Origin: a virus | Taxonomy: Duplodnaviria; Caudoviricetes | Reading direction: 5' to 3' (one strand) | Length of the DNA: 60,173 nt | IMG/VR virus record: IMGVR_UViG_3300027769_001255 | Coordinates: 1 to 60,173 of that record | Shown here: positions 3,036 through 53,639 of the stretch, one piece after another | Position numbering within the stretch: position 1 is the stretch's first letter | How the letters are laid out: every line of letters starts with the position of its first letter | Program-made: the position numbers and the translations under genes | The notes under the pieces: generated by a model | The model's input: only the letters and a program-made list of their open reading frames with translations | Database searches by the model: none | What the model was told of the DNA's origin: nothing

Positions 3036-3088
3036 GAGTTATTTAAGCAGTTAACTCTAGGCCGTAAACGACGTACATAAATATGTTG

Positions 3089-3727
3089 ATGACAAAATAT
3101 CTTCTAATTGACAAATACACTTCTGTGTTGTTGGGTGTTGATCAAAACGCTCAGATACCAAACTTTTTGGCACAGGGCTTAGATAAAACCAAAGTGCTTA
3201 GGATGGATCGCGCCCACCCTCTTTATTCTCAAATCAACAAAACCATGATGGCAGGAAAAATATTGACAGTGAGTCCAAGACTCACTGTCAAAGACGAATC
3301 CACAACTTTATTTCCAGAAGAAACAGTAACAACGATAAATTACGTAAAATTACGCGAACCCATCATGTCTGGTCTTTTCAATCTAGTGGCAAGATGGATT
3401 TCTCACTCAACTGAGTTGATTTTTCCAGGCATGGAAAGCATAGTTGAAATTGAACTGCGAGACTGTGACCATAGCAACAATGAGTACACTGCAAACATAC
3501 ATTTCCATGCTGAAATGATGGGCATGACTGCGTCAGAAGCATACGAACAGCTCAATGCAATAGCCGCACGTGGTCAAAAGAAACGCATGCAAGGCATGAG
3601 TTTTATCTACAAGTATTCCAAGATGATAAACAATGTTGTCACTCATAGTGATGCTGAACGCATCAATGCACTGATGTATCAGGAATGGGACGCATTTACA
3701 GAAAAATTTACAAAGGAGATGTCATGA
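3089..3727 (+). CDS. Hypothetical protein
   Basis: Long ORF, TAAATA-N5-ATG start, overlaps next gene. Confidence 0.7.
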   Translation: MTKYLLIDKYTSVLLGVDQNAQIPNFLAQGLDKTKVLRMDRAHPLYSQINKTMMAGKILTVSPRLTVKDESTTLFPEETVTTINYVKLREPIMSGLFNLVARWISHSTELIFPGMESIVEIELRDCDHSNNEYTANIHFHAEMMGMTASEAYEQLNAIAARGQKKRMQGMSFIYKYSKMINNVVTHSDAERINALMYQEWDAFTEKFTKEMS

Positions 3728-4524
3728 GTCAGAAAATATTAATCATGGGTTTACCTGGAGCAGGAAAGACTTTCCTGGCCAAGGAACTCAAAGCACAAAT
3801 TGAAGCACGTGGCCGCCGGGTTGAGTGGTTCAATGCCGACGAGATACGTACCAAGTACAACGACTGGGATTTCAGTCCCGAAGGTCGTATGCGTCAAGCC
3901 AACCGCATGCGTACACTGGCCGAAGAGTGCACAGCAGACTATGTGATCTGTGACTTTGTGGCACCAACAGAACAGATGCGCAGTGCTTATCACGCAGACT
4001 GGACCATATGGGTTGACACCATTGACAAGGGTCGATTTGAAGACACCAACAAGATGTTTGTTCCGCCCACAGTGTATGACTTCCGCATCACTGAACAAAA
4101 ATGCGAAGTCTGGGCAGAGTTTGTAGCAGATCATATTGTGATGAACAAGCGACGCTCTGTGTTTGACTGGAAGAAAGAAACAGTACAGATGTTGGGTCGC
4201 TGGCAACCTTGGCATCCGGGTCATCGTGCCTTGTTTGAAAGACTGTTGCAACGCACAGGACAAGTGATCATTCAGATTCGAGATGTACAGGGTTGGCAGG
4301 GTAGCAATCCATTTGCTGTGGATCAGGTTAAAGGGTATATCACACGTGACCTAGATCCTCTTTATCAAGGCATGTATGAAATACAAGTAGTACCTAACAT
4401 TGTACACATTGGTTGGGGCCGCGGTGTAGGTTACACATCAGGTGAAGAAACATTTGATGAAAGCATCACACAGATCAGTGCCACCAACATCCGTGCTGAA
4501 ATGAAGGCCAAAGGCGAACTGTGA
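3724..4524 (+). CDS. Adenylylsulfate-kinase-like domain fused to HIGH-type nucleotidyltransferase domain
   Basis: GLPGAGKT P-loop, NADEIR, DFVAP; C-terminal LGRWQPWHPGH and SAT motif. Confidence 0.8.
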   Translation: MSQKILIMGLPGAGKTFLAKELKAQIEARGRRVEWFNADEIRTKYNDWDFSPEGRMRQANRMRTLAEECTADYVICDFVAPTEQMRSAYHADWTIWVDTIDKGRFEDTNKMFVPPTVYDFRITEQKCEVWAEFVADHIVMNKRRSVFDWKKETVQMLGRWQPWHPGHRALFERLLQRTGQVIIQIRDVQGWQGSNPFAVDQVKGYITRDLDPLYQGMYEIQVVPNIVHIGWGRGVGYTSGEETFDESITQISATNIRAEMKAKGEL

Positions 4525-4724
4525 GCGATACCAACCGCAGGAGTCTTGCCAAGGCAATCAGCTGGAGAGCAACAGGAACTCTAGATACCTTTTTAATCAG
4601 TTGGTTGATCACAGGCGAACTTGCGCTGGCTGGCGGTATTGCACTAACAGAAGTTGTTACCAAAATATTCTTGTTCTGGGCACATGAGCGTGTTTGGAAC
4701 AAGATAAAATGGGGAAGAACTTGA
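4521..4724 (+). CDS. DUF2061-like small membrane protein
   Basis: RSLAKAISWR...HERVWNKI pattern. Confidence 0.8.
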   Translation: MSDTNRRSLAKAISWRATGTLDTFLISWLITGELALAGGIALTEVVTKIFLFWAHERVWNKIKWGRT

Positions 4725-4749
4725 CATAACAATAGCTTTTTGCTATTAT
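4721..4749 (+). promoter_or_regulatory. Sigma70-type promoter for the tRNA-like RNA
   Basis: TTGACA-17nt-TATTAT with extended TG. Confidence 0.75.
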
Positions 4750-4791
4750 GTCATAATTAAATTACCGGCCGAGAAGGCCGGTAATGCTTTA

Positions 4792-4882
4792 GGAAGTGTG
4801 GCAGAGTGGTTTAATGCTCTTGTAACACACAAGTGAGCCACGTTTAATGGGTTCCGTGGGTTCGAATCCCACCGCTTCCGCC
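4792..4882 (+). tRNA. tRNA-Ser-like RNA with non-canonical 5-nt anticodon loop
   Basis: GGAAGTG/CGCTTCC acceptor stem, G73, D-loop GG, long variable arm, GTGGG-TTCGAAT-CCCAC T-arm; anticodon arm CTTGT-AACAC-ACAAG. Confidence 0.8.
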
Positions 4883-4941
4883 GGCGACCAGCTCCGGGAT
4901 TCCGAGAGGAATACGGTAAATAATTGATGGGAACTAACACA

Positions 4942-5301
4942 ATGAATAAGTCTTATTGGGGTTATCATCTTATCCTGGATTGCGCTGACGGAAGGCGCGA
5001 TGCGGTGACTGATGGTAAACATATCGCAGAATTCGCCAAGACACTAGTCAAGGATATTGATATGGTTGCTTACGGCGACCCACAGGTGGTGTTGTTTGGA
5101 ACAGGCAACAAGGAAGGCTATACGCTTGTCCAGTTGATTGAAACCAGCAACATTTGCGGACATTTTTGTAGCGAAAGCGGAGACCTTTATTTGGACGTCT
5201 TCAGCTGTAAGCCATACGATAAGGAAGTTGTAAAGAAGTTGGCTTACGAGTATTTTGGATTCACAAGCATGCGCGAAACCTACTTGGTTCGCCAGGCTTG
5301 A
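4942..5301 (+). CDS. speD: S-adenosylmethionine decarboxylase proenzyme (phage type)
   Basis: GYHLILD, LIETSNICGH cleavage region, YLDVFSCK. Confidence 0.85.
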   Translation: MNKSYWGYHLILDCADGRRDAVTDGKHIAEFAKTLVKDIDMVAYGDPQVVLFGTGNKEGYTLVQLIETSNICGHFCSESGDLYLDVFSCKPYDKEVVKKLAYEYFGFTSMRETYLVRQA

Positions 5302-5315
5302 AATAAACTATGGAT

Positions 5316-5346
5316 ACGGGGGTACCTTAAAAATACCCCCGTTTCT
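5316..5346 (+). terminator. Terminator-like hairpin
   Basis: ACGGGGGTA...TACCCCCGT followed by TTCT. Confidence 0.6.
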
Positions 5347-5362
5347 GTGGATGCAATACCAG

Positions 5363-5391
5363 TTGACAACAACACACAGACCTTGTATAAT
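5363..5391 (+). promoter_or_regulatory. Sigma70 promoter
   Basis: TTGACA-17nt-TATAAT. Confidence 0.8.
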
Positions 5392-5421
5392 ACAGAGACT
5401 GACACAGTAACATCGTAAGGA

Positions 5422-5673
5422 ATGCAAATGACAAAGACAGAACTAACCGAAATGTTGCGCAAGCAAGATGCAACGGTTACCTTCACCAAGAAGGATGGCA
5501 CTCAGCGTGTGATGCGCTGTACGCTACGCCCTGATGCATTACCCGAGATGATCACAGAGTCAACACGGACCAGTACTGAACGACGCGAGTCAGACAGTAC
5601 GATCGCGGTGTGGGATCTTGACCTCGGAGCCTGGCGTAGTTTCCGGCTCGATAGCTTGGTTGAAATCGCCTAA
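5422..5673 (+). CDS. WYL/SH3-like small phage protein (DUF2693-like)
   Basis: VTFTKKDGTQRVMRCT...VWDLDLGAWRSFR. Confidence 0.75.
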   Translation: MQMTKTELTEMLRKQDATVTFTKKDGTQRVMRCTLRPDALPEMITESTRTSTERRESDSTIAVWDLDLGAWRSFRLDSLVEIA

Positions 5674-5781
5674 CAACGTCGTGATCACTAGCTTCCCGAT
5701 ATTGGAGAAGCCTGCGTGAATCAAAGTGGACAGGTACACGGTCCACAAAGAGAAACGTAGCTAACCGAGAGGAGAATCGAA

Positions 5782-6450
5782 ATGATCGAACGTCTTAAAG
5801 GCACGTTCACTATGAACCTAGTTGGCTGGCTTTGCCTGCCTGCTTTGATTCTTAGTTTCATTCTATCAATACCGCCAGTGGCTGTGCTAACTGCCCTGGC
5901 CAATCAGACCGACATTCAAGGGTCTATACGAGAGACAATTCACAGAGATTTGTCTATGATTGCGTTACCTGAGTCTGCCAGTGTAGCACCTGCACGAAGA
6001 GATCCATTTGATATTGCCGAGTCATACAGCCGATGGTTGCCGGAACGCATGTTGCGCGATCGTCAAGTTATTTGCTTGGCCAAAAATATCTGGTATGAAA
6101 GCCGAGGTGAACCTTCAGATGGCCAATTGGCAGTGGGTTTAGTCACATTGAATCGTGCGGAACATACGTCCTGGCCTAAAACCATATGCGAAGTAGTTTA
6201 TCAGCCTGGACAATTCAGCTGGACAGCAGAACCGAGCTTACGTAATAAAAAGCCAACGGGCGAGCAATGGGAACAGATTGTGTTGCTCAGCGCCACCTTG
6301 ATGCATCGTAAGGATCTCTTTGATGACATCACAGATGGTGCTACTTACTTCCATGCGGCTTACATAAAGCCAGGTTGGAGCAAACTACAGCATCACACGG
6401 TGAGACTAGGTCAGCACGTTTTTTATAAACCAAAAGAACAACAAAACTAG
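5782..6450 (+). CDS. SleB-like cell wall hydrolase (Hydrolase_2) with N-terminal TM anchor
   Basis: CLAKNIWYESRGE, VTLNR, CEVVYQPGQFSW, GATYFH, GQHVFY. Confidence 0.9.
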   Translation: MIERLKGTFTMNLVGWLCLPALILSFILSIPPVAVLTALANQTDIQGSIRETIHRDLSMIALPESASVAPARRDPFDIAESYSRWLPERMLRDRQVICLAKNIWYESRGEPSDGQLAVGLVTLNRAEHTSWPKTICEVVYQPGQFSWTAEPSLRNKKPTGEQWEQIVLLSATLMHRKDLFDDITDGATYFHAAYIKPGWSKLQHHTVRLGQHVFYKPKEQQN

Positions 6451-6465
6451 GTAAATATACTCACT

Positions 6466-7806
6466 ATGGCATATCTCGTACTATTCATTGCACTTGCACT
6501 ATCAGCTGTTGCCGCATGGTATTCGGTTGCCGGCCTCATGGTGCTTTTTGCGGCAGCTAGTCTGCCAGTTGCCATCATGGCATCCACGCTAGAAGTGGCC
6601 AAACTGGTCACAGCATCTTGGTTGTACAATAACTGGAGAAGGGTGCCCTTTATTCTGAAAGGGTATCTCAGTTTTGCTGTGTTTGTTCTTATGTTCGTAA
6701 CTAGCTTGGGCATTTTTGGCTTTCTCAGCAAGGCGCACCTGGACCAGGCCATGCCTGCAGGTGACATAGCGACCAAGATAGAGATCATCGACGAGAAGAT
6801 CAAAGCACAACAGGCCAATATTGATTCAGCAAAAACTGTGTTAAGGCAAATGGACGATGCTGTTAACCAGGCGTTAGGAAGAGGTGTTGGCAACATTGCA
6901 TCCAATGCCACTGCCGCTCAGCAACAGGCCGCGCAGGCCGCGGCCGAGCGTAATACTAATCAGGCCGCAAACTTGCGCAGAACCCAGGCCAAAGAACGAG
7001 ATGTACAGCAGGGTATTATCAACAAGTCACAAGAAACAATTCAAAAGCTTCGTGAAGAACGTGCACCTGTTGCGGCACAGATGCGTACACTTGAAGCCGA
7101 GGTTGGGCCAATCAAATACGTAGCTGAAATGATTTGGGGAGGAGATGCCAAGAGCCATTTTGATTCTGCTGTGCGTTTTCTGATCATCACCCTTATCTTT
7201 GTGTTTGATCCGCTGGCTGTGCTGTTAGTTATAGCAGCCAACATGAATATGAGATGGAATAAGGAAGAAAAAGAAGCACTCAAGTCTTTTCCGCCAGCAG
7301 TAAATGACCAAATAACTGATTCTGTCACGCAGAAGCCAGACGTTGTTAACCCACAGATCACTGACGCAGTAACACAGATCAATTTGGGCCAAATTGATGT
7401 TGAGTCAAATCTTGAGACTGTGGTAGCCAAAGCCGAGGCAAAGGAGACGGCAGCGGAAACTGATCCTCTCCCTTTCGTCCAAAGGCCAGCAGAGCCTCCA
7501 AAAGAGATGATCTGGCCCAAAGCAAAGATTCATAGTGTAAAATCCAAAATAGACATTGAACTGGGCAAGAAGAGCAAGACCGAGGTTGACAAACAAGTAG
7601 ATAAATCTATAATAGAAACAATAGATGGTTTACCCGAGGACGATTTGAAAGAAGTTTTATCCAAAGCCGACGACGAAACACTACAACAAGTATATGCTCG
7701 TATAGTAGAAGAGAACCGTGTTGATGATCCATTTAGCCGACGTCAAAACTCAGGTGGCCCTCCGGGATTTGTTGCGCCACCGCGTGATATAACTAAAAAA
7801 GGTTAA
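6466..7806 (+). CDS. Multi-TM coiled-coil phage membrane protein
   Basis: Three N-terminal TM helices, long coiled coil, EVGPIKY, IFVFDPLAV TM. Confidence 0.75.
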   Translation: MAYLVLFIALALSAVAAWYSVAGLMVLFAAASLPVAIMASTLEVAKLVTASWLYNNWRRVPFILKGYLSFAVFVLMFVTSLGIFGFLSKAHLDQAMPAGDIATKIEIIDEKIKAQQANIDSAKTVLRQMDDAVNQALGRGVGNIASNATAAQQQAAQAAAERNTNQAANLRRTQAKERDVQQGIINKSQETIQKLREERAPVAAQMRTLEAEVGPIKYVAEMIWGGDAKSHFDSAVRFLIITLIFVFDPLAVLLVIAANMNMRWNKEEKEALKSFPPAVNDQITDSVTQKPDVVNPQITDAVTQINLGQIDVESNLETVVAKAEAKETAAETDPLPFVQRPAEPPKEMIWPKAKIHSVKSKIDIELGKKSKTEVDKQVDKSIIETIDGLPEDDLKEVLSKADDETLQQVYARIVEENRVDDPFSRRQNSGGPPGFVAPPRDITKKG

Positions 7807-7812
7807 TGGTCA

Positions 7813-9469: not shown

Positions 9470-9470
9470 T

Positions 9471-10268: not shown

Positions 10269-10293
10269 ACATACACACATATAGGAGGCCACT

Positions 10294-12982: not shown

Positions 12983-13411
12983 ATGAGAAAGAAATCCGAA
13001 ATTGAAAAACGCAAACGCGGCATACAGCGATTGCGCAAGTTGGCTGAGCATGGGCAAGAAGATGGCGTATTCTGGAAGCCAGACGCACAGTATGCTGAAC
13101 GTGTGTATAATGCATTGAATCGAACTGTGTTCAAAGGGCAACTTTCTCGTCCTAAAATAGTCATACGTGACTACAAACAAAACTTCTGGGGCGAGTGCGA
13201 AGGCATGTATGTTTACGGCAAGCCAGTTTGCAAAGTGATTCGCATGCATCGTTGGATTCCCAACAGCAAAACATTCATACGTGTGATGGCTCATGAGATG
13301 GTGCATCAATGGGAGTTTGAAAAAGGCCCATATCATCGAATGACACACGGACAGCGTACATTTTATTCCTGGAAACCTGAATGCGCTCGTTGGGGAATAA
13401 ATCTCACTTGA
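12983..13411 (+). CDS. SprT-like zinc metalloprotease
   Basis: HEMVH plus downstream HG..F. Confidence 0.75.
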   Translation: MRKKSEIEKRKRGIQRLRKLAEHGQEDGVFWKPDAQYAERVYNALNRTVFKGQLSRPKIVIRDYKQNFWGECEGMYVYGKPVCKVIRMHRWIPNSKTFIRVMAHEMVHQWEFEKGPYHRMTHGQRTFYSWKPECARWGINLT

Positions 13412-13436
13412 CAAACAAGTCTGTATCAGGTATACT
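13408..13436 (+). promoter_or_regulatory. Sigma70 promoter, likely leaderless transcript
   Basis: TTGACA-17nt-TATACT-6nt-ATG. Confidence 0.75.
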
Positions 13437-13442
13437 GTTACA

Positions 13443-13871
13443 ATGAATAACAACACAAAAAACATCATATTTGAGTTGGGCAATAAACTGTCCAATCGTG
13501 TGGCCAGCCTCCAAGGCGACATAGAAGCAAGATCGCAACAGGTAAATGATCTACGTTCTGTTATGTTCAGTGCCGCAACAGCTCTAAGACTGCTGGATGC
13601 TGAAAAACATGCCGCAGTGATTGCCATGTTAGAACTTCCAAATCATAATTGCGACGGTAGCGGATGCAATCATGCTCAATTGCTCGAACGCAGGATCGAC
13701 GAACAACAGGAGCAGATACGCACACTGGAATCTCAAATTTATGAATATGAAAATATTGCCATGACGCTGGCCAATCAAATGGGCGTGAATCCATTTGACG
13801 ACAACGACTATCAGGATAGTGGATGCTGTCCTAGGATTGTTCCTAATTTGGACGACAGTGCATCCGTTTGA
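13443..13871 (+). CDS. Hypothetical coiled-coil protein
   Basis: ORF behind promoter, heptad character. Confidence 0.7.
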   Translation: MNNNTKNIIFELGNKLSNRVASLQGDIEARSQQVNDLRSVMFSAATALRLLDAEKHAAVIAMLELPNHNCDGSGCNHAQLLERRIDEQQEQIRTLESQIYEYENIAMTLANQMGVNPFDDNDYQDSGCCPRIVPNLDDSASV

Positions 13872-19476: not shown

Positions 19477-19684
19477 AAGCCAACATCCGCACGTGGTTGA
19501 TGTTGACTGGAGCATGGCACAGGCGCGAGAAGATTGGTGGGATCTGATCTGCATCTATGCCATAGAAGAATTTGGACTTCCGGGAGATCGCTTTATCACT
19601 GAAGCTACCCCGGAAAACATGCGCTTCTATTTTCGAGATCCACAGGATGCCATGATCATGCGGTTGCGTTGGCACATATTATAA
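19469..19684 (+). CDS. LRW-family small protein 7
   Basis: Ends FRDPQDAMIMRLRWHIL. Confidence 0.7.
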   Translation: MDKSQHPHVVDVDWSMAQAREDWWDLICIYAIEEFGLPGDRFITEATPENMRFYFRDPQDAMIMRLRWHIL

Positions 19685-19692
19685 ATATGTGC

Positions 19693-20385
19693 ATGAAACA
19701 CAAGGTAGCAATATTTTTACACCATCCCGAATGTTCTCAGGACTGTGTTGATGGAATGGCTGAGGCCCTGCTACCGCACTATGACATAGTGACCTTTTCT
19801 GAAGACACCTTGAACGCCGCTATCTTAAGCGGCGTTTCTGTGATTGCGTTCCCTGGAGGCATAGGAGACAGTGATTCCTATTATGAATTCTTCCGTCGCA
19901 GGACAGCCAATATCGTGGCAGACTTTGTTGCCAAGGGTGGCAAGTACCTTGGCATTTGCATGGGTGCATACTGGGCAGGCAAGCACTACTTTGATATCTT
20001 AGAAGACGTTGATGCTGTGCAGTATATCAAAAGACCTGGAGCAGACGTGCGCCGTAGCTTTGGAACAAAGACGCCAGTGACTTGGAATGGTCAACTGGAA
20101 CACATGTACTTCTATGATGGATGCGCACTTGTGGGCAATGAAAGCCGATTTGAAACTGTGGCACGTTATGCCAACGGAGATCCAATGGCGATCATCCAGG
20201 GCAACATTGGTATCATTGGTTGCCATCCAGAAAGCAGCCACTACTGGTATCAAGCACCGTGGCAGTATTTAGAACCCTACTGGCATGAAGGACGCCATCA
20301 CAAGTTATTATTGGGTTTTGTTGACAAATTGGTAAATATTTGTCCAGGAGGACACAACCATGAAACAGAAAAAGCTATTAGCTAA
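19693..20385 (+). CDS. Class I glutamine-amidotransferase-like (BPL_N-like) protein
   Basis: [16 protein letters not shown]. Confidence 0.8.
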
Positions 20386-20536: not shown

Positions 20537-20569
20537 CTTTTCAACTACGATGCTACGATAAATACTGCC

Positions 20570-21346
20570 ATGCAGAAAACTTATCGTAGCATTTTCATTA
20601 GCGATATACATCTAGGCAGCAGGGGTTGCAAAGCTGACCTACTGTGCAACTTCCTCAAAAATAATTCAGCAGAAACCATGTACCTTGTGGGTGACATCAT
20701 TGATGGCTGGCGCCTTCAGCGCAACTGGTACTGGCCACAAGAACACAGCAACGTAGTACGACGTTTCCTTACAGCCGCCAAGCGCGGTACAAAAATCATC
20801 TACATAGCAGGCAATCACGATGAAGCCATACGCCCTTGGTTGCGACACATTCCAGACATTGGCAATGTGACATTCCAGAACAAAGCAGAACACATAGGTG
20901 TAGATGGAAAACGATATCTCATAGTACATGGTGATATGTTTGACACCTTGATGCATGCCACATCAGGCAAGCTGATCATGCACATTGGAGACAAATTGTA
21001 TGATGTCATAGTACGTCTCAATGATTGGTGGGCCTTATTGCGAGCCAAGCTGGGTTTGGAATATTGGAGCATGAGCAAATGGATCAAGCAGAACACCAAG
21101 CAAGCTGTTGGCTATGTGCTTAACTTCGAAGGCTTGCTTGCTGACTATTGCAAAGCCAAAGGATATGATGGTATCATATGCGGACATATCCATACAGCAT
21201 CCATAAGAGATGTAGATGGTATAACATACATGAATGACGGCGACTGGGTGGAGAGTTGTACAGCACTGGTTGAACATCACAACGGCGAGTGGGAATTGAT
21301 ACACTGGAAATATCAAGATGAAAAAAATTCTAATAGTAACAGATAA
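20570..21346 (+). CDS. LpxH/PlcP-family metallophosphoesterase
   Basis: SDIHLG, GDIIDGW, GNHD, HGD, CGHIH, GDWVESC. Confidence 0.9.
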   Translation: MQKTYRSIFISDIHLGSRGCKADLLCNFLKNNSAETMYLVGDIIDGWRLQRNWYWPQEHSNVVRRFLTAAKRGTKIIYIAGNHDEAIRPWLRHIPDIGNVTFQNKAEHIGVDGKRYLIVHGDMFDTLMHATSGKLIMHIGDKLYDVIVRLNDWWALLRAKLGLEYWSMSKWIKQNTKQAVGYVLNFEGLLADYCKAKGYDGIICGHIHTASIRDVDGITYMNDGDWVESCTALVEHHNGEWELIHWKYQDEKNSNSNR

Positions 21347-22316: not shown

Positions 22317-23496
22317 TCTGTTTCAGTGCAGACACAAGATTACTCATCATGGCATCGGTATGCAAAGGAGTTGGAGCAAACCTAAGTCGCTCTGTTCCAA
22401 CTGCCACAGTGGGATAGTTGATTGCTTGCACATAGATATTGAATTCTTCTATCAAGCGGTCACTGGCCGCTTTACATTTCACAGCATCACCTATCAGCAC
22501 AGGAACGATGTGAGTTTCGTTTAGCATCACAGGCAAGCCTGCTGCCATCAACATTCCTTTAAGGGTACGAGCACGTTCTTGATGTGCTTCTCTCAGTTCA
22601 TTGTGGTCTTTGAGGTATTTGACTGCTGCCAATGCGCCAGCGCATAACACAGGACTGATGCTGGTGGTAAAAATAAACCCACTGGCAACGCTACGTATGG
22701 CATCTATCACCTGATCGTCAGCGGCAATGTAACCGCCTTGCACACCAAATGCTTTGCCTAGCGTACCGTTGACAATGTCAATCCTGTCTTGCAGGCCTAG
22801 CTTTTCAAGATAGCCTGCGCCTGTGGCACCATACAATCCCACAGCATGCACTTCATCAAGATATGTGATGGCGCCATACTTGTCTGCTAGGTCGCATATT
22901 TCTTTCAGCATACTAACATCGCCATCCATGCTATACACACTCTCAAACACGATGCACGGAGTTTCTTCGCGCATGACCGCTGCCTTAAGACTGTCTTCTA
23001 GGCTAGTCATATCGTTGTGTTTGAATATGATCCGGTGCGCACCCGAATGGCGCATGCCTTCTATCAGGCTTGCATGATTTTTGCTGTCGCTTACGAAGGC
23101 CAAGTTTGGTATGATCTTGGCAAGAGCAATTAGAGTCCACTCGTTAGCCACGTATGCAGAACTGAACAGCAACGCTCGCTGTTTGCGATGCAGTCGGGCC
23201 AATTCCATTTCCAATGCCACATGATAGTGACTGGTTCCGGAGATGTTGCGTGTGCCACCTGATCCTGCTCCAGACTGATCCAGTGCAGTGTGCATGGCAT
23301 CCAAGACCACTTTGTGCTGGCCCATGCCCAGGTAGTCGTTGGAACACCAGTTCACAATCTTTTTGATGTTGTACGGACCGTACCATATGGCATTGGGATA
23401 GCTACCTCGCTCGCGTAGCACGTCGTTGAACACTCGATAGCGTCCGTTTGAACGCAGATTATTCAGTACCGTTTCAAAGTGGGTTATGGGTATCAT
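22309..23496 (-). CDS. hemA: 5-aminolevulinate synthase (PLP, Shemin pathway)
   Basis: [46 protein letters not shown]. Confidence 0.92.
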
Positions 23497-23539
23497 GGTG
23501 TTGTATTTAAGCAACACCTGTGCCCGTCCAAAATTGCAC

Positions 23540-23604: not shown

Positions 23605-23739
23605 CCAATGATTTCAATGACTTAGCTTGGCGTTGAAAATCAATGACTTAGCCTAAACTGTGGCATTTTTGCAACACTGGCAGATTTCTGAAAAAAAGTT
23701 CAAAAAACGGTTGACGCACCCGGGCCCATTTGCTATACT
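23605..23739 (+). promoter_or_regulatory. Early promoter cassette copy 1
   Basis: 2x TCAATGACTTAGC, TGT-N12-ACA (23659-23676), TTGACG-17-TATACT. Confidence 0.8.
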
Positions 23740-23745
23740 ACATAC

Positions 23746-24066
23746 ATGATAAAGAAACGCAAGACACGCTCGGATCGCACTCACATCATTTACCAAGCCA
23801 CTTGCGTGGCTACTGGTGAACTGTATGTGGGCGTGACTGCCAAGACCCAGCCCACACTGGCCAAGAGCTTGTGGACTCGCTGGAGGAAGCACCTGCAACG
23901 TGCCCGCACTGAGAACAAGAAATGGACTCTGTGCAAGGCAATCCGCAAGCATGGTGCAGAAGCTTTTGAAGTCATTATCATCGAAACAGTTCGCGGTAAG
24001 GCACTTGCACACGAACGTGAGCGCGAGCTTACCGTGGAACTAGGTGCCACGCTCAACACTCTGTGA
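23746..24066 (+). CDS. GIY-YIG-like nuclease domain protein
   Basis: IIY..LYVG, RWRKH, AIRKHG, E motif. Confidence 0.75.
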   Translation: MIKKRKTRSDRTHIIYQATCVATGELYVGVTAKTQPTLAKSLWTRWRKHLQRARTENKKWTLCKAIRKHGAEAFEVIIIETVRGKALAHERERELTVELGATLNTL

Positions 24067-26780: not shown

Positions 26781-26873
26781 CAAAATCAAGCACTTAGCAG
26801 GTGTTGTATTTGTGCAACACCTGCATCTTTCTGGAAAATTTTGGTTGACCGCGAGCCCGTTTTGTTGCATAAT
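26751..26873 (+). promoter_or_regulatory. Early promoter cassette copy 2
   Basis: ATTGAAATCATTGG, AAAATCAAGCACTTAGC, TGT-N12-ACA (26802-26819), TTGACC-17-CATAAT. Confidence 0.8.
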
Positions 26874-26903
26874 ACGAGTATGGTAAGCAAAAAGGAGCAA
26901 ACG

Positions 26904-35141: not shown

Positions 35142-35161
35142 GTGTGTAGATAAATATCATC

Positions 35162-36109
35162 ATGAAAGCACTTATACACAACAGTCCCGAGCACTCTGAA
35201 TGGTTCGTAGTCAATTGGTGTCTAGGAAACACATGTAATTTTTCCTGTACCTATTGTCCAGCCATCTTGCACGACGGTTCAAACGCATGGCCTGAACTTG
35301 AAGTTATTAAGAAATTCATTGACCGCGTGTATCAACAAAAGCCAGGAAAGAAATTGGCATTTGAATTCACAGGTGGTGAAGTCACAGTATACAGACACTT
35401 TGAGGAACTGTGTAACTTTATCAAAATGCGAGGTGGTGCTGTACTGTTTATCAGCAATGGCAGTCGTACCTTGCGTTTCTGGGAAGGAATGAAGGGCAAG
35501 GCTGACCATGTTTGCCTGAGCTATCATGCCGAAGAAGGTGATCCGGATCATTTCTTCAAAGTGGTTGAAACATTACATGACAACATGAAAGTTCACGTGA
35601 ACGTGATGATGCATCCGGATCATTGGGCAACATGTATGGATCTCGCCGAACATGTGATAACTGTTCCAGGTATCACCATTGCGATCCAACCGCTCATACA
35701 CGATTTTGGTGACAAGGTGTTTGATTACGAACCCTGGCAACAGGTGGTGTTCAAGGAACAATACCGTTTGTTCCAGTCTAGGATCACGCCGTCAGATGGC
35801 AAAACAGGATTTTCTGTTAGAGGGGCCATGCGCGAAACACAGCGCGGTCAACCCAGCAAAGTGGTACAGCCACACATATTGATCTCTGAAAACAAAAACG
35901 ACTGGTCTGGTTGGAGTTGTGCCGCTGGCGTTGAACAGATCATTGTTGATATGGATCGCACTGTATGGCGTGGCTGGTGTCGAGAAGGCGGCCTGATTGG
36001 CCGGATCGATGATCCAGAATTGAAGTTGCCAAATGATTGGGTTAACTGCGGAAAGAAATTTTGTCACTGTAACTTTGACATCATGTGTACCAAACTGGAG
36101 CCAAAATAA
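35162..36109 (+). CDS. Radical SAM protein with C-terminal twitch/SPASM-like domain
   Basis: CNFSCTYC, FTGGE, SNGSR; C-terminal CAAG..WC..C..CHC..D..C. Confidence 0.9.
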   Translation: MKALIHNSPEHSEWFVVNWCLGNTCNFSCTYCPAILHDGSNAWPELEVIKKFIDRVYQQKPGKKLAFEFTGGEVTVYRHFEELCNFIKMRGGAVLFISNGSRTLRFWEGMKGKADHVCLSYHAEEGDPDHFFKVVETLHDNMKVHVNVMMHPDHWATCMDLAEHVITVPGITIAIQPLIHDFGDKVFDYEPWQQVVFKEQYRLFQSRITPSDGKTGFSVRGAMRETQRGQPSKVVQPHILISENKNDWSGWSCAAGVEQIIVDMDRTVWRGWCREGGLIGRIDDPELKLPNDWVNCGKKFCHCNFDIMCTKLEPK

Positions 36110-40082: not shown

Positions 40083-40777
40083 TGTACTGCCCCAACAGAT
40101 GGATATTGTTGGATAGGCTGAGTCTCTTAGACAAATGGGCAGTTGGTAAGACGAGAACAAGTCTTGCAACTGCCCGTGCAGTTTCTAGAGCCCTACAAGA
40201 GCCTTCCATTAAATGGGTAGCCGGCCCAAATCATGATCTTGATCCCGGTGACTTTACTGTGAGTGGCTTGTATGATCCTGCCGCTGACGAAAATGAAGAA
40301 AACGTGTTCATCGAATGCTCTGTGAGCATTGGCGCTGGTTCAACAATCTGGAACGATATTTCCTGGTTGAAATTCAAACGCAATGTGGCAGATGTTGTAT
40401 GCCATGAACAACTGCACACACATAGGCATCGCTCTAGAAACTTTGCCACACCAAAGTCATACGAAGCCAAGTTATCTGCGGATGAGCTTGAAAAAGAAAA
40501 AGTCTATCTCAAGGACCCAGACGAGATAGAATGTTATGCACACAACATTGCATCCGAATTGCTGGACTTTTATGGTCACATTCGATTTGCAAGAAAATAC
40601 GATTGGCAATATTTGATCCAGATGCCTCCTCCAGACTGCCCCAGTATAAATCTCTGGGCATATGGACGAGCACACGGTCGAAATAAAAAACTAATGAACT
40701 CGCTGATGGATCAGGTGTACAAATTTATGGACGAAATACACAATCAATATCAAGAGTTTTTGATTGGCAACGACTGA
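40082..40777 (+). CDS. Putative zincin metalloprotease
   Basis: HEQLH and Y...DEIE motif. Confidence 0.6.
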   Translation: MYCPNRWILLDRLSLLDKWAVGKTRTSLATARAVSRALQEPSIKWVAGPNHDLDPGDFTVSGLYDPAADENEENVFIECSVSIGAGSTIWNDISWLKFKRNVADVVCHEQLHTHRHRSRNFATPKSYEAKLSADELEKEKVYLKDPDEIECYAHNIASELLDFYGHIRFARKYDWQYLIQMPPPDCPSINLWAYGRAHGRNKKLMNSLMDQVYKFMDEIHNQYQEFLIGND

Positions 40778-40798
40778 GCTTTGTGCTATACTAACACA

Positions 40799-40978
40799 AT
40801 GAAAACTTACACTGCACACGTTGAAGAAGACCCAGAAACTAAAGAACTCGTATTGGTGTTCCCTGACGAAGTTATGGAACAAGTTGGTTGGAACATTGGT
40901 GATACCATCCAGTGGACCGACAACAAAAACGGATCATGGACTCTTACACGTAAAGAAAGCAATGACACGGAAAGTTAA
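40799..40978 (+). CDS. AbrB/MazE-like small protein
   Basis: LVFPDEV..VGWNIGD; promoter TTGGCA-17-TATACT-6nt-ATG. Confidence 0.7.
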   Translation: MKTYTAHVEEDPETKELVLVFPDEVMEQVGWNIGDTIQWTDNKNGSWTLTRKESNDTES

Positions 40979-46444: not shown

Positions 46445-46445
46445 T

Positions 46446-47673: not shown

Positions 47674-47730
47674 ACTTGACTTCCTCGGCGCAATGCGCTA
47701 CACTTACACATACACAACTGAGAGGATAAC

Positions 47731-48660: not shown

Positions 48661-49238
48661 CAAAAGTGATATTGACTGACGTAGATGGAGTATTATTAAA
48701 CTGGGCGGCCGGATTTGATGCCTGGATGCTTGATCAAGGATTTAGACATGTGCCAGGCAACGAACATGCATATCTAATGAATGAACGCTTCATTGACGTT
48801 GAGTACGATCAAGGCAAGCAACTGATTCGAGAATTCAATGAGAGCAAGGCAGTGGGGGAATTGCTTCCGCTTAGAGATGCGGTGCAAGGTGTTGCACGAT
48901 TGGCCCGTAACGGCTACAAGTTTGGCGTGATTTCCAGCCATTCAGATGTTGAGCATGCTTGCCGTCAGCGCGAAGCCAACCTAAAAAGACATTTTACCAA
49001 TGTGTTTGATTTCTTTGTACACTTGCCAACCGGTGCAGATAAAGATGATGCGCTAGAACCATATCGCGGATCAAACTTATGGTGGGTTGAAGACAAGACT
49101 GAAAATGCCGTGGCTGGTGCAGTAAGAGGCCTAAGGTGTATACTTGTGGATCACGAACACAACAATGATGATCGTCCACACAATGTCATTAGGGCCTACA
49201 ACTGGAACGAGATCGCTGATCTCATCCTGTCAAAATAA
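48657..49238 (+). CDS. HAD-family 5'-nucleotidase-like protein (T4 30.2-like)
   Basis: TDVDGVLL, WVEDK..N. Confidence 0.82.
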   Translation: MTKVILTDVDGVLLNWAAGFDAWMLDQGFRHVPGNEHAYLMNERFIDVEYDQGKQLIREFNESKAVGELLPLRDAVQGVARLARNGYKFGVISSHSDVEHACRQREANLKRHFTNVFDFFVHLPTGADKDDALEPYRGSNLWWVEDKTENAVAGAVRGLRCILVDHEHNNDDRPHNVIRAYNWNEIADLILSK

Positions 49239-49276
49239 TCTAAAGCGAAACCCAAGGTGCTGGGCCAGATTTGGTT

Positions 49277-49993
49277 TTAGGCGTCGCCGTAGATCTTCAA
49301 AACTTCACTTACCGCAGGATGTCTTTCAACATCCTGTGCAGTGAAGACAACTGATGCTAGATACTCTGAATTTTTCTCCTTTAGTTTTTCCATGAAGTCT
49401 TTAAGGCCGTTTTCAGCAAAGCCTCGATCATGTTGAGCTAGATCGCCTGTTACTATGATTCTAGAGCCAGGTCCTATTCTAGTCAACAACATTTTCATCT
49501 GTTCACGTGTTGCGTTTTGCATTTCGTCAGCAATCACGATTGCATTCGTGAATGTGCGTCCGCGCATGTAGGCCAATGGTGCTACTTCAATCACGTTCTC
49601 AGATACCATGTCATTTACAGTTTTGACTGACCAGTGCTGTTCAAAAATATCAAATATTGGTCTAGTCCAGGGTGCCATTTTCTCTATCAATGTGCCAGGC
49701 AGAAAGCCATGCTGTTCGTCCACGCTTACAGCTGGTCTAGTCACGATTACTTTGTTGATCTTGCCAGCTTTGAGTTCCCTAACAGCATACATTGCGGCCA
49801 TAATGGTTTTACCTGTACCCGCAGGTCCAAGTGCAAATATGATGTTTTTTTGGGAATCTTCTAACAGCGCCAGGTAATCTTCCTGGTGCAGATTGCGTGG
49901 TACGATTCGTACCTGTGTCTGTGCTCGCTTCGTGTACTCATTGAAGCTTATTACATTGCGCTCTTTTGGCGCTCGGTTGGTTCTTTTGCTCAC
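49277..49993 (-). CDS. phoH: PhoH-like ATPase
   Basis: GPAGTGKT, TRPAV, GFLPG, YMRGRT, DEMQN, LTRIG, TGD. Confidence 0.95.
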   Translation of the reverse strand: MSKRTNRAPKERNVISFNEYTKRAQTQVRIVPRNLHQEDYLALLEDSQKNIIFALGPAGTGKTIMAAMYAVRELKAGKINKVIVTRPAVSVDEQHGFLPGTLIEKMAPWTRPIFDIFEQHWSVKTVNDMVSENVIEVAPLAYMRGRTFTNAIVIADEMQNATREQMKMLLTRIGPGSRIIVTGDLAQHDRGFAENGLKDFMEKLKEKNSEYLASVVFTAQDVERHPAVSEVLKIYGDA

Positions 49994-50105
49994 TAGATTC
50001 TCCTTGGAGGTTAAATCGTCTGAGCCCAGCGGACCTTGGGTCCAACAGTATTTACATGGCAACTTTGATAAATGTACTCAAATGGGGTGAACGCTAAATA
50101 ACTGC

Positions 50106-50639
50106 ATGAGAAACCAACTTGATATTTTTAACACTATTGATGACGTTTTTGTGAGCGAGAACACGCTGGAAGTCATGCTGGAATTTGAACGTGTTTTAGA
50201 CCAAATGGACATGTATGCCTACGAAAACTGGATCAAGGGTGAACTAGTTGAAGGACCTAATGTCACACGTTACTGGGTAGAATGCGCATTTATGTGGCCG
50301 CTAAAGCTGATGCCAGATCCCAGTGCCGCATTGCGTTTGACCAATAGAAAATGCAAAGTCTACTACAGCAGAGATTACTATGTGGAGCCAATGGCTGCAG
50401 AGCCAGGCAACGCCAATCTCATGATAGATCCGCTGACGCAAAAACCAAGACCCAAGATGAAGAAGACCCCTGTGTGGGTTGTAACAATCAAAATACCACG
50501 TAGATTTATTGACGGTGAAGCGGCCGCTGATCGCATGAATTCCAGTTCAACTGTTGACCTGGATTCAGTAAATCAAGCCTACGATCAGGATCTTGAATCT
50601 AACATAGCTACAGGAGCAGATAATGAGCTTGAGGCCTAA
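50106..50639 (+). CDS. Conserved hypothetical phage protein
   Basis: FERVLD, NWIKGE, MPDP; TAAATA-N5-ATG. Confidence 0.8.
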   Translation: MRNQLDIFNTIDDVFVSENTLEVMLEFERVLDQMDMYAYENWIKGELVEGPNVTRYWVECAFMWPLKLMPDPSAALRLTNRKCKVYYSRDYYVEPMAAEPGNANLMIDPLTQKPRPKMKKTPVWVVTIKIPRRFIDGEAAADRMNSSSTVDLDSVNQAYDQDLESNIATGADNELEA

Positions 50640-51138
50640 TGATCTAGAAGGACTGGTCATGTCACAGATCAGCATAGACGAATTTAAGAGCAAACTAGGT
50701 GAAGACCGTAGTGTTGTTGTTATTGCTATCCCAGTAACAGAAGAAAGTGCCGCACACGATTTAGGAGACTTCATTGAGCGTGGGCCATTCAAACTGTGGG
50801 ATGTCGATATTAGTCCAGCACCTGATAACAAAGGTAATTATTATGTGTTCATTGAACTTGAGCGCAGTCATCTCATGTGGAACACCATTATTTCTGTGTT
50901 TGAACACACAGAAAGGCTAATTGGTAAAGTGTTTGAATCAATCACTTTTACCTGCCCAGGAAAAGACCGACCACAGCCACTTACTGAAGAAAATTTCAAG
51001 TCCAGCATCTTGCAAAGTCCTTATCGTTGGGACATTGCACATGACGTGTATCCCGAAGTTCCGTCTGACGAAACTGAAGTTACATCAAATGATGAGCAGG
51101 AAATACAAAAGCGAATGAAATTTTTAGCGGACTATTGA
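50623..51138 (+). CDS. Hypothetical phage protein
   Basis: SIDEFKSKLG, VFIELER. Confidence 0.75.
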   Translation: MSLRPNDLEGLVMSQISIDEFKSKLGEDRSVVVIAIPVTEESAAHDLGDFIERGPFKLWDVDISPAPDNKGNYYVFIELERSHLMWNTIISVFEHTERLIGKVFESITFTCPGKDRPQPLTEENFKSSILQSPYRWDIAHDVYPEVPSDETEVTSNDEQEIQKRMKFLADY

Positions 51139-51141
51139 TGC

Positions 51142-51360
51142 ATGCCAAAAGAAGAAACAATCAAGATCAGAGGTAAGGTAATCGATGTGTTGCCCAACGC
51201 ATTGTTTAAGATAGAAGTAGAGAATGGGCATGTGATGATTGGACATATATCCGGCAAAGTTCGCAAGAACAATATCAAGATATTGGTCAACGACGAGGTA
51301 GATGTTGAAGTCAGCGCATACGACCTATCTAAGTGTCGCATAACATACAGGTACAAATAA
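51142..51360 (+). CDS. infA: Translation initiation factor IF-1
   Basis: LPNALF..ENG..HISGK.R..YDLSK.RITYR. Confidence 0.95.
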   Translation: MPKEETIKIRGKVIDVLPNALFKIEVENGHVMIGHISGKVRKNNIKILVNDEVDVEVSAYDLSKCRITYRYK

Positions 51361-51361
51361 A

Positions 51362-51955
51362 ATGTTTGGATTAAGCGGAATAGGATTGAAAATTGCAATC
51401 ATGTTGGCATTGTCAGGTGCCGCAACAGGTGCATGGTTCTATGTACAAAACCTCCGAGGCGAGCTGGCATTAGCTGCCGAACGCCAAGCAAGATTAACTG
51501 ATGTAGTTGATAGCCAAAAGCAGGCCATGGAAACTATACAGAAAGACATAGGGCGTATGCAAGCCGCTACGTCAGAACTCAACAAAAAACTCGTGGAAGC
51601 AGAACAAGGTCGTAGAGAACTTGAAAACAAGTTCAATCAGACCAGCGCAGGCCGGCCGAGAGATTTTGCGGCCTTGGCAAACAAAGAACCAGAGAAGATT
51701 GAAGAAAGCATCAACAGAGGCACACGTGATGCTCATCGTTGTAACGAAATTGTAAGTGGTTCCGATTTAACCGCAGATGAACAAGCAGGTAAGGTTCGCA
51801 ACACCATGTGCTCAAACTTACTGCCAGCATACAAAGGACCACCCGAAGTTGCAACTGCGCCGACGCCGGCAGCAAGCGCACCAGTAGCATCAAAGCCTAC
51901 AACACCTTCCAGAGTTGTTGTTGATCCAAGCAAAATTAAAAGGGCTAAACAATGA
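51362..51955 (+). CDS. i-spanin-like protein
   Basis: N-terminal TM, long coiled coil, overlaps lipoprotein gene. Confidence 0.7.
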   Translation: MFGLSGIGLKIAIMLALSGAATGAWFYVQNLRGELALAAERQARLTDVVDSQKQAMETIQKDIGRMQAATSELNKKLVEAEQGRRELENKFNQTSAGRPRDFAALANKEPEKIEESINRGTRDAHRCNEIVSGSDLTADEQAGKVRNTMCSNLLPAYKGPPEVATAPTPAASAPVASKPTTPSRVVVDPSKIKRAKQ

Positions 51956-52323
51956 AAAACACACACATTCTATCCGCTGTATTGTTAGCACTAGCACTAG
52001 CAGGATGCGCATCTACTAAAGAAACATTGGTGGTAAAACCACAAGTGGTCGAAAGACCCCGACTAGAAGTACCATCTCCTCAGCCGGTACAACAACTCCC
52101 GTTTGAATGGATTGTTATTACCAAAGAAAACTACGAAAAGAAATTCAAGGAAATTGAAAGCAAGGGTGGTAGTGTGACATTGTTTGCATTGACTCCTCAA
52201 GGTTATCAGAATCTTTCAATGAATGTGGCAGAACTGCGTCGCTTTATGCAACAACAGAAGGCAGTGATTGCCGCGTTGAAAAAGTATTACGAAGCAACTG
52301 AAGACAAACCCGCGGAGAAGTAA
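51952..52323 (+). CDS. o-spanin-like lipoprotein
   Basis: LAGC lipobox, Pro-rich, YQNLSMN. Confidence 0.7.
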   Translation: MKNTHILSAVLLALALAGCASTKETLVVKPQVVERPRLEVPSPQPVQQLPFEWIVITKENYEKKFKEIESKGGSVTLFALTPQGYQNLSMNVAELRRFMQQQKAVIAALKKYYEATEDKPAEK

Positions 52324-53132
52324 TGGATCCGTGGGCAACACTTAGGGTTTCCAGAGACGCTAGCCCTGAGGACATCAAGCAGGCTTATCGTAAGTTGGCA
52401 ATGAAGCACCATCCAGATCGCGGTGGTGATGAAGCCGAATTCAAAAACATACAAACAGCATACGATGACATAACGTCGGGCCGTGCAAACCAACCACCTC
52501 CGGGTGCAGGATTCAACCCTGGAGATCACTTTGGTTGGTCAGCACACTTTGGTGAAGGGTTTGGTGCTCCGCCATTTGGTTTCCAGCATCAGCGTATGCG
52601 ACGTATGGAAGACCTAAGTGTGGAGTATGCTATTTCCCTGGAAGACTTGTACCATGGCAAGTCTGACAAGATACGCATAATGACTCCTGACCGCGGTGCT
52701 TATATTGAGCTGGACGTAAACATAACTCCAGGCATGCCCAGCAACGCCAGGATCAGATATCCCGGAGCGGCGTCAACACATATACCCGGCGTGGTGCCGG
52801 GTGATGTATTCATACTCATAGCACAAAAGCCGCATGCATCTTTCCGCAGAGATGGTGACGATCTACATACCGAAAAGGAAGTATCTATATTTGATGCCAT
52901 GTTGGGCAAGGATATTTCGTTGACCACGCTGGATGGTAGACTGTTACAAATGCGCATTCCTCCAGGTGCTCGCCCAGGACTGCGCATGCGAGTAGCCGGA
53001 TCCGGAATGCCTAAATCCAATGGTAGTAGCAACAATGGAGATCTCTACGTTCAATTAAATATGAAAGTACCCAGACTGAAAGAAGAAGATTTAGACAAAA
53101 AACTAGTTGACATCATGCGTGAGAACAAGTAA
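52323..53132 (+). CDS. DnaJ-class (type II, CbpA-like) co-chaperone
   Basis: J-domain HPD, G/F region, C-terminal domain, no zinc finger. Confidence 0.92.
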   Translation: MDPWATLRVSRDASPEDIKQAYRKLAMKHHPDRGGDEAEFKNIQTAYDDITSGRANQPPPGAGFNPGDHFGWSAHFGEGFGAPPFGFQHQRMRRMEDLSVEYAISLEDLYHGKSDKIRIMTPDRGAYIELDVNITPGMPSNARIRYPGAASTHIPGVVPGDVFILIAQKPHASFRRDGDDLHTEKEVSIFDAMLGKDISLTTLDGRLLQMRIPPGARPGLRMRVAGSGMPKSNGSSNNGDLYVQLNMKVPRLKEEDLDKKLVDIMRENK

Positions 53133-53135
53133 AAT
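53107..53135 (+). promoter_or_regulatory. Sigma70 promoter, likely leaderless def transcript
   Basis: TTGACA-17-TAAAAT-6nt-ATG. Confidence 0.7.
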
Positions 53136-53141
53136 AGAACA

Positions 53142-53639
53142 ATGCAAAATTTATCCCTTGTAATAGAAGACCACCCTGCGCTTAGGCAATCCTGTGTAGA
53201 ATGGACAGGACAGGAAGATGCTGAAACACTGGTAAAGGACATGCTTCGATTGATGTTTGCTACCAACGGACTCGGACTTTCGGCTCCGCAGGTGGGTAAA
53301 AATTATCGGATGTTTGTGATGGGCAATCAGGATCGCATGTATGCATGTTTCAATCCCAGGATCATATCAGCCAGCATAGAAATGGAAATGGGCAAAGAAG
53401 GTTGTTTGAGTTTTCCAGGACTATGGCTGAATGTCAAACGACATACCGACATAGTTGTACAGTATGAGGATGTTGAAGGCAACAAACAGGAACAAACCTT
53501 TAGCGGAATTATTGCTAGATGTTTCCAGCATGAACTAGATCATCTAGATGGAGTTTGTTTTGTGGATCGTGCCGCCAAGCTCAGTCTTAAGATGGCACGT
53601 GAACGTCAATCCAAGTGGCTTAAAAAAGGTATCAAATAA
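53142..53639 (+). CDS. def: Peptide deformylase
   Basis: GLGLSAPQ, EGCLS, QHELDHL. Confidence 0.96.
   Translation: MQNLSLVIEDHPALRQSCVEWTGQEDAETLVKDMLRLMFATNGLGLSAPQVGKNYRMFVMGNQDRMYACFNPRIISASIEMEMGKEGCLSFPGLWLNVKRHTDIVVQYEDVEGNKQEQTFSGIIARCFQHELDHLDGVCFVDRAAKLSLKMARERQSKWLKKGIK

Follow-up and report, generated by a model that had tools for sequence, protein, structure and literature searches.

Promoters abutting start codons point to leaderless mRNAs in a fragment of an uncultured freshwater jumbo phage

The IMG/VR virus record IMGVR_UViG_3300027769_001255 comprises 60,173 bases, all of which were analysed here and are referred to as the window. Its CheckV completeness of 16% indicates a fragment of a phage genome of ~375 kb, and its source is an uncultured freshwater jumbo phage of the lytic type; the DNA sequencing runs that contain nearly all of a 9.5 kb stretch of the window are freshwater metagenomes. 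A first-pass annotation had claimed that this phage carries genes for the translation initiation factors IF3 and IF1, ribosomal protein bS21 and peptide deformylase (def), and Pfam matches confirm all four. The window also carries two classes of promoter, one built on the hexamer TAAATA, which is the core of the late promoter of phage T4, and one of the sigma70 type. At 14 of the 29 promoter-gene junctions that could be paired, the promoter abuts an ATG start codon. This layout, which is predicted to place the 5′ end of the message at or very near the start codon, is the subject of this report.

Genes were defined by a home-made greedy call of open reading frames (ORFs), and the starts of the resulting 109 ORFs were then examined individually. 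The 14 ORFs with abutted promoters encode 54-446 amino acids (aa), and all 14 begin with ATG. Nine lie behind TAAATA boxes and five behind sigma70 promoters, and their coordinates are collected in the table together with those of promoters that are separated from their genes by a leader. Spacings are written as N followed by the number of nucleotides (nt) between the promoter element and the start codon.

For TAAATA, the first-pass annotation had listed N5 spacing before ATGs 3089, 19693, 20570, 35162 and 50106, together with N4 at 3035 on the minus strand, N7 at 23496 on the minus strand and N8 at 6466. All of these sites are present as described, and an N4 site before ATG 4927, absent from that list, can be added. 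The five N5 sites, all on the plus strand, compare with a mean of 0.61 among 100 dinucleotide shuffles, none of which reached five; a separate run gave an expectation of 0.71, and none of its 200 shuffles reached five. The hexamer as such is not over-represented (22 observed versus 25.2 expected), yet for 15 of the 22 an ORF in the correct orientation starts 4-29 nt downstream, indicating that the box is positioned rather than merely frequent. Among these 15 gene-linked boxes the spacings are N4 (twice), N5 (five times) and N7, N8, N15, N18, N20, N21, N25 and N29 (once each). No Shine-Dalgarno (SD) sequence accompanies any of the nine short-spaced boxes (N4-N8), while five of the six long-spaced boxes (N15-N29) are followed by one.

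A comparable pattern was found for the sigma70 class. When at least 10 of 12 matches to TTGACA/TATAAT with a 17-nt spacer are required, five sites followed by N6-ATG are present versus 0.117 expected, with a maximum of one among 300 shuffles. These are the five sites proposed earlier, at ATGs 13443, 23746, 26880, 40799 and 53142, and they score 10-11 of 12. Their ATGs open ORFs of 59-165 aa, whereas four matches with other spacings open merely 3-17 codons. At a looser cut of at least 9 of 12, N3 and N8 are also somewhat high (4 versus 0.7-0.8), while at 10 or more N6 alone stands out. An overall excess of sigma70-like sites was not found by a loose consensus scan (43 versus 33.8; 39 versus 36.2). 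Nine other strong sigma70 promoters that precede genes have their -10 hexamer 25-31 nt from the ATG, and these genes have good SDs. Shuffle controls thus show enrichment of the promoter-to-start spacing in both promoter classes.

Some further arrangements of these elements were seen in the window. The sigma70 promoter of the second ClpP gene (33175-33229) is followed, 7 nt past its -10 hexamer, by an ATG that opens a mini-ORF of five codons overlapping the ClpP SD. At 15184-15230 a perfect TTGACA-17-TATAAT is followed 11 nt further on by a TAAATA box, with no ATG within the next 45 nt. An extra TAAATA lies at 53056-53061, inside the 3′ end of the DnaJ gene and 80 nt ahead of def, so def may also ride on a late transcript, in which its ATG would be internal and without an SD.

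Shine-Dalgarno sequences are the rule in this phage. An SD core of at least 5 nt precedes 34 of the 109 ORF calls and 3.5% of random positions, versus none of the 14 candidates; a core of at least 4 nt precedes 62 of the 109 calls versus 11% of random positions. Two of the 14 candidates have the 4-mer AGGT, which lies within the promoter (random positions: 11%). Promoters of both kinds that are separated from their genes by a leader have spacers of 15-31 nt, and 14 of these 15 leaders carry an SD.

The candidate ATGs look like real starts. In the def protein the family match begins at residue 7, which corresponds to profile position 5, and in the metallophosphoesterase (ATG 20570) it begins at residue 7 and profile position 3. 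Residues 1-57 of the ORF at 40799, an ORF of 59 aa that is distinct from the arginase-family gene, match positions 4-59 of the 61 positions of phrog_661. Likewise, the match of the 50106 protein to the virion protein family phrog_12928 starts at residue 9, and 74 of 80 matches to aminotransferase orthologues start at residue 1 of the protein encoded from ATG 23496. Among the 14 candidates, only 26880 has an SD-led alternative start.

Table. Promoter-start junctions and translation-related genes in the window. Positions are those of the 60,173-base record; the numeral after ATG is the position of the start codon.
Feature	Position	Strand	Gene or remark
TAAATA-N5-ATG 3089	3078..3091	+	212-aa ORF 3089-3727, no family; no SD
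TAAATA-N4-ATG 3035	3033..3045	-	54-aa ORF, uncertain gene; back to back with the 3078 box
TAAATA-N4-ATG 4927	4917..4929	+	S-adenosylmethionine decarboxylase
TAAATA-N8-ATG 6466	6452..6468	+	446-aa ORF; heads co-directional array with ClpX, IF3 and bS21
TATAAATA-N5-ATG 19693	19682..19695	+	BPL_N-like protein; full T4-type box
TAAATA-N5-ATG 20570	20559..20572	+	metallophosphoesterase; Pfam match from residue 7
TAAATA-N7-ATG 23496	23494..23509	-	class I/II aminotransferase
TAAATA-N5-ATG 35162	35151..35164	+	radical SAM protein
TAAATA-N5-ATG 50106	50095..50108	+	virion structural protein phrog_12928; heads array holding IF1
TTGACA-17-TATACT-N6-ATG 13443	13408..13445	+	142-aa ORF
TTGACG-17-TATACT-N6-ATG 23746	23711..23748	+	GIY-YIG endonuclease-like
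TTGACC-17-CATAAT-N6-ATG 26880	26845..26882	+	ambiguous: in-frame SD-led ATG 26904
TTGGCA-17-TATACT-N6-ATG 40799	40764..40801	+	59-aa protein, phrog_661 full length
TTGACA-17-TAAAAT-N6-ATG 53142	53107..53144	+	peptide deformylase
TAAATA, 21-nt spacer with AGGAGG, ATG 20360	20333..20362	+	leadered contrast
Leadered TAAATA box, N29	1070		no SD
Leadered TAAATA box, N25	32140		
Leadered TAAATA box, N20	44301		
Leadered TAAATA box, N18	56848		
Leadered TAAATA box, N15	15161	-	
Leadered sigma70 start	5422		
Leadered sigma70 start	10294		
Leadered sigma70 start	15834		
Leadered sigma70 start	24944		
Leadered sigma70 start	28694		
Leadered sigma70 start	31061		
Leadered sigma70 start	33230		
Leadered sigma70 start	38986		
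Leadered sigma70 start	47731		
IF3 gene	9471-10028	+	both domains (IF3_N 1.3e-24, IF3_C 2.2e-19); residues 16-182 align with Thermus IF3
bS21 gene	10029-10262	+	Ribosomal_S21 1.1e-18; start directly after IF3 stop; aligned with solved bS21
IF1 gene	51142-51360	+	eIF-1a/IF-1 1.4e-21
def gene	53142-53639	+	peptide deformylase (Pfam)

We consider it about 75% probable that some 14 genes begin at the transcription start predicted by their promoters and that their messages lack a ribosome-binding leader. These genes would be first cistrons, and the 5′ end of their mRNA would coincide with the A of the AUG or be at most 3 nt away. In Escherichia coli (E. coli), sigma70-dependent transcription starts about 7 nt after the -10 hexamer; the five genes behind consensus sigma70 promoters would presumably be transcribed by the host holoenzyme. 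The T4 late box occupies positions -13 to -6, and the corresponding CTAAATA of phage Aeh1 begins at -12 (PMC1524935); the late box is also described as lying about one helical turn upstream of the transcription start (PMC2988020). From the T4 coordinates, TAAATA would span -11 to -6, which places the A of an N5 ATG at +1. The boxes before the other nine genes would, by analogy, be read by a gp55-like phage sigma factor on the host RNA polymerase. A gp55-like ORF of 280-295 aa was found in four of five related records (E values 3.7e-8 to 6.6e-5), and a late sigma factor has been reported for Agrobacterium phage Atu_ph07 (PMC6102473).

A 5′-terminal AUG without an SD would take the leaderless route of initiation, wherein the 5′ AUG is engaged by a 70S ribosome or by a 30S subunit that acts together with IF2 and fMet-tRNA. 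Ordinary SDs would serve the downstream cistrons and every other transcription unit. An abutted gene should then be translatable only from transcripts of its own promoter, as its AUG on read-through RNA would be internal and SD-less. We infer the start sites, the form of polymerase that reads the boxes and the translation route from the spacing rules of T4 and sigma70 promoters. The earlier proposal that the phage runs two translation tiers holds at the level of sequence, in that SD-less ATGs at a predicted +1 stand beside SD-led genes.

The same layout was found in relatives, among 258 loci (3.0 Mb) fetched around orthologues of four window genes. The distance between TAAATA and ATG in these loci peaks sharply at five: ORFs of at least 50 aa begin at 135 (85%) of the 159 unique N5 sites. 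Smaller classes are formed by N4 (41 of 52 sites open ORFs), N7 (29 of 49) and N8 (36 of 63), and at offsets of 9-15 only 0-33% of sites open ORFs of at least 50 aa. Transcription usually starts with a purine at +1 preceded by a pyrimidine at -1. The base at -1 of the 135 N5 sites is T in 99 and C in 24, which, ahead of the A of the ATG, fits this usual context. The sigma70-type motif TTGACN-17-TANNNT occurs 386 times as unique motifs in these loci; an N6 ATG follows in 36 cases, 27 of which open ORFs of at least 50 aa, and a second, broad mode lies at N24-N37.

Comparison of orthologous genes shows how the layout varies. Among 48 distinct contexts upstream of the aminotransferase gene, the box lies 4-8 nt before the start in 34, is lacking within 45 nt in 12, and is found at N24 and N26 in the remaining two. 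For orthologues of the 50106 gene, a box is present in 29 of 30 distinct contexts, at N5 or N8 in 13 and at N10-39 followed by an SD in 15. The same gene therefore alternates between an abutting box and a box-leader-SD-ATG arrangement, which is the behaviour of a promoter and not of a ribosome-binding signal. A GIY-YIG orthologue with 52% identity (locus L118) retains TTGACA-17-TATAAT-6-ATG, and orthologues of def vary, some having a TAAATA box 3-8 nt before the start and others an SD. More distant orthologues of the 40799 and 35162 genes (~40-65% identity) mostly lack the layout, and many of the latter are translationally coupled (GGATGGTAATG). A search of viral contigs yielded no relative of the 13443 protein. 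Divergent late boxes placed back to back (CAT..TATTTA..TAAATA..ATG) were seen at 3033-3091 of the window and upstream of aminotransferase orthologues (for example L093, L099 and L125), and from their spacing both divergent genes at such sites look leaderless.

At the level of whole records, the number of TAAATA-N5-ATG sites was compared with the count for a reversed-pattern control. Uncultured relatives gave ratios of 20/5, 24/6, 44/4, 36/5, 32/6, 28/5 and 45/12, among others. This measure also bears on the proposal, made in the first-pass annotation, that phage-borne IF3, IF1 and bS21 retune initiation by shifting ribosomes between the leaderless and the SD-led tier, a proposal that would add to the leaderless reading and not replace it. 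The three genes are all present and look intact, with family domains at full length as judged by Pfam and alignments. IF3 and bS21 lie downstream of the box at 6452, and IF1 downstream of that at 50095, with no terminator-like site on the plus strand between box and gene, although this is a matter of layout only. Published statements on these proteins cut both ways. Leaderless mRNA is selected against by IF3 bound to the 30S subunit but is said to be favoured when IF3 sits on the 50S subunit of 70S ribosomes (PMC8138138), and ribosomes that lack uS2 and bS21 favour the leaderless lambda cI mRNA (PMC10491246).

Among 12 related records of at least 90% completeness, no link was found between the presence of these factors and the layout. 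The comparison uses raw counts uncorrected for relatedness and base composition, and thus gives a trend rather than a test. The five records that bear IF3 have N5/control counts of 15/9, 30/20, 17/8, 2/3 and 17/16 and show the weakest enrichment; the seven without IF3 have counts of 20/5, 44/4, 36/5, 28/5, 45/12, 28/12 and 10/13, and enrichment is clear in six of them. When records with and without IF3 are paired, by our own arithmetic, the excess is larger in the one with IF3 in only 5 of 35 pairs. Control counts are high in the IF3-bearing records, and most of the N5 sites listed for them nevertheless have a pyrimidine (T or C) at -1. The gene for bS21 is found in all 12 records, including three without enrichment, and that for IF1 in nine; the three that lack IF1 are Atu_ph07 and the two records with the strongest enrichment (44/4 and 36/5). 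The window departs from the trend, since it combines IF3 with strong enrichment. This distribution suggests that the layout requires none of IF3, bS21 and IF1. The trend for IF3 runs in the opposite direction, which we take to mean that no positive link is shown rather than that a negative link exists. We therefore regard a role of these factors in shifting ribosomes between the tiers as improbable.

Several observations weigh against the leaderless reading of the 14 junctions. Its start rule is that of T4 and E. coli and may not be that of the host, and no gp55 gene was found in the window, which covers some 16% of the genome. Only one of the nine window sites (19682) has the full TATAAATA box, and positions -13 and -12 are not conserved; among the 135 N5 sites of the relatives, 62 have A at -12 and 50 have G at -13, TAAATA itself being invariant by design of the search. 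The N4, N7 and N8 spacings cannot all place the A of the ATG at +1, implying leaders of 1-3 nt or shifted starts. Two individual candidates are also uncertain. ATG 26880 has an in-frame alternative, with AAGGAG 6 nt before ATG 26904, and may be SD-led, and the 54-aa ORF at 3035 on the minus strand may be no gene, no homologue of it being present in the fetched loci of relatives. Four cultured jumbo phages, namely Sinorhizobium phage Phosso (3/2), Vibrio phage 2.275.O (3/3), PA5oct (15/12) and Ecwhy_1 (4/14), have no N5 excess, that of Atu_ph07 (15/9) is weak, and T4, which lacks the layout, gave 10/5, so that there is no experimental precedent among cultured relatives. The sequencing runs that match the phage or its close relatives number 22, and the three RNA runs among them that contain parts of the phage do so as contigs, which cannot show transcription starts. 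One RNA-library contig, among the three RNA runs compared with 12000-31900, begins at 20558, which is 12 nt short of ATG 20570; with fewer than 31 letters on the upstream side it bridges nothing.

A further point of this kind concerns what lies upstream of the candidates. Nine of the 14 lie no more than 51 nt behind a co-directional gene or tRNA, with gaps of 9 nt for 53142, ~8 for 19693, 20 for 35162 and 21 for 40799, and no terminator-like hairpin was found on the plus strand in the gaps that fall within 1-20000 and 40200-60173, the regions scanned. Candidates could consequently also be expressed from read-through transcripts by reinitiation. Taken further, the SD-less ATGs might owe their expression chiefly to long read-through RNAs, through termination-reinitiation or 70S scanning past the preceding cistron, with the adjacent promoters playing a secondary part. 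However, this explanation accounts neither for the exact distance from promoter to ATG nor for the pyrimidine at -1, and the neighbour upstream of the candidates at 3035, 3089, 23496, 23746 and 50106 is a divergent gene, so that no cistron precedes these five. We consider it quite unlikely as the main route of expression.

If TAAATA were instead an A/U-rich ribosome-binding element that replaces the SD, and not a promoter, a short fixed spacing before the ATG and SD-less starts would be expected just as they are from leaderless messages. Against this, six window genes have the box 15-29 nt upstream, five of them with a canonical SD, and 15 of the 30 contexts of 50106 orthologues combine a box at N10-39 with an SD. 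Moreover, the box equals the T4 late core, relatives encode gp55-like proteins, and the unrelated sigma70 class abuts the ATG in the same way. A translational role for the box is thus very improbable. Chance or mis-called start codons, which could be suspected because the ORF calls are home-made and 26880 has an alternative start, can be practically dismissed given the shuffle controls for both promoter classes, the long ORFs opened by 85% of the N5 ATGs of relatives and the N-termini backed by homology.

The leaderless reading invites comparison with several known systems. Late promoters of T4 (TATAAATA, read by gp55 with gp33 and the gp45 clamp) have an identical TAAATA core, and as in T4 no conserved -35 element lies upstream; gp55-like ORFs are encoded by relatives. 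Boxes also precede the virion gene at 50106 and a small ORF at 56872, two genes upstream of a tail-fibre gene. However, T4 has 32 full TATAAATA boxes, from which ORF-opening ATGs lie at N13-N34 (mode N28) and none at N4-N8, whereas 9 of the 15 gene-linked boxes of the window are at N4-N8 and positions -13 and -12 are not conserved. In addition, many box-led genes in the window are metabolic rather than virion genes. The lambda cI message from PRM has a sigma70-type promoter, the A of its AUG at +1 and no SD (PMC10491246), but this concerns one regulatory gene, while here ~14 genes in 60 kb and two promoter classes would be involved, in a layout common to a group of relatives.

The share of leaderless messages among mRNAs is put at ~0.5% for E. 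coli, 7% for Methylorubrum and as much as 47% for Deinococcus deserti (PMC9320726). Leaderless-rich bacteria resemble the phage in that the -10 element abuts the start codon as a genome-wide habit, although in the present case it is a phage genome that shows this habit, and one of the promoter classes involved is phage-specific. Among jumbo phages with mapped starts, phiKZ and AR9 are likewise large phages with their own transcription programme, but differential RNA sequencing (dRNA-seq) found no leaderless transcript in phiKZ (PMC8244752), and 5′ untranslated regions of AR9 are 26-491 nt long (PMC5312081). The genome papers on Atu_ph07 (PMC6102473) and Sinorhizobium phage AP-J-162 (PMC11242549) do not mention 'promoter' or 'leaderless'. 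A full-text search, outside of which lie most subscription journals and supplements, found no description of leaderless late mRNAs or start-fused promoters in T4-like or jumbo phages.

A megablast search of 35000-45000 against phages found no close phage. By protein, the nearest isolates are Phosso and Atu_ph07, with 45% and 42% identity, respectively, in a ClpA-like protein. Phosso shares with the window the gene order DnaJ, def and Clp ATPase, but not the enrichment of TAAATA-N5-ATG (3 versus 2). Pfam matches in the window include ClpX, two ClpP, ClpS, the ClpA-like ATPase, DnaJ, HSP20, many metabolic genes and a gp44-like clamp-loader subunit at 47731-48660, and only two tRNAs were detected by Rfam and ARAGORN. 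ClpX, IF3 and bS21 form a tight module at 8225-10262. Besides the 6452 box, an internal sigma70 promoter at 7586-7613 lies upstream of IF3 and bS21. IF3 adjoins bS21 in three relatives (G006, G007 and G009), and in AP-J-162 ClpX stands beside IF3 and S21 is present (PMC11242549). The closest cellular IF3 proteins come from metagenome-assembled genomes of Alphaproteobacteria, at 40-44% identity, which is too weak for naming a host.

Other features of the window are recorded here as side observations. About eight small, paralogous-looking ORFs at 16352-18595 are linked by repeated junctions of the form ...GAGGTGG(T/A)(C/T)ATGA..., and Pfam and PHROG matching found no family for them. A gap of ~490 nt at 30573-31061 has no ORFs, and Rfam found nothing there; an RNA-library contig of very high depth (1358) touches 30753-30818 with short flanks, and may derive from another organism. 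At 4721-4882, a consensus sigma70 promoter (TTGACA-17-TATTAT, its -10 preceded by TG) is found 42 nt ahead of a 91-nt tRNA, assigned by ARAGORN as Cys with anticodon ACA, and a strong hairpin lies between promoter and tRNA.

Leaderless mRNAs are uncommon in bacteria of the E. coli type and, to our knowledge, the phage examples are mostly isolated ones such as lambda cI. The genomes compared in this study suggest that a large group of uncultured aquatic jumbo phages produces leaderless mRNAs systematically, from both host-type and phage-type promoters. In T4, despite an identical late box, promoters do not abut start codons in this way. A tentative idea is that fusion of promoter and start codon serves as a gate. 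In a genome that is apparently terminator-poor, a gene of this kind would be silent on read-through RNA, the choice between early sigma70 and late gp55-type transcription would set translation as well, and IF3, IF1 and bS21, encoded downstream of late boxes, could shift ribosomes between the tiers late in infection. Should the layout be confirmed, software for gene calling and promoter finding ought to take TAAATA-N5-ATG as a start signal in these phages, and late translation in infection must handle many SD-less messages. These phages would then provide a natural system for asking what leaderless initiation is used for, such as temporal gating, and the layout offers a direct way of testing the roles of phage-borne IF3, IF1 and bS21.

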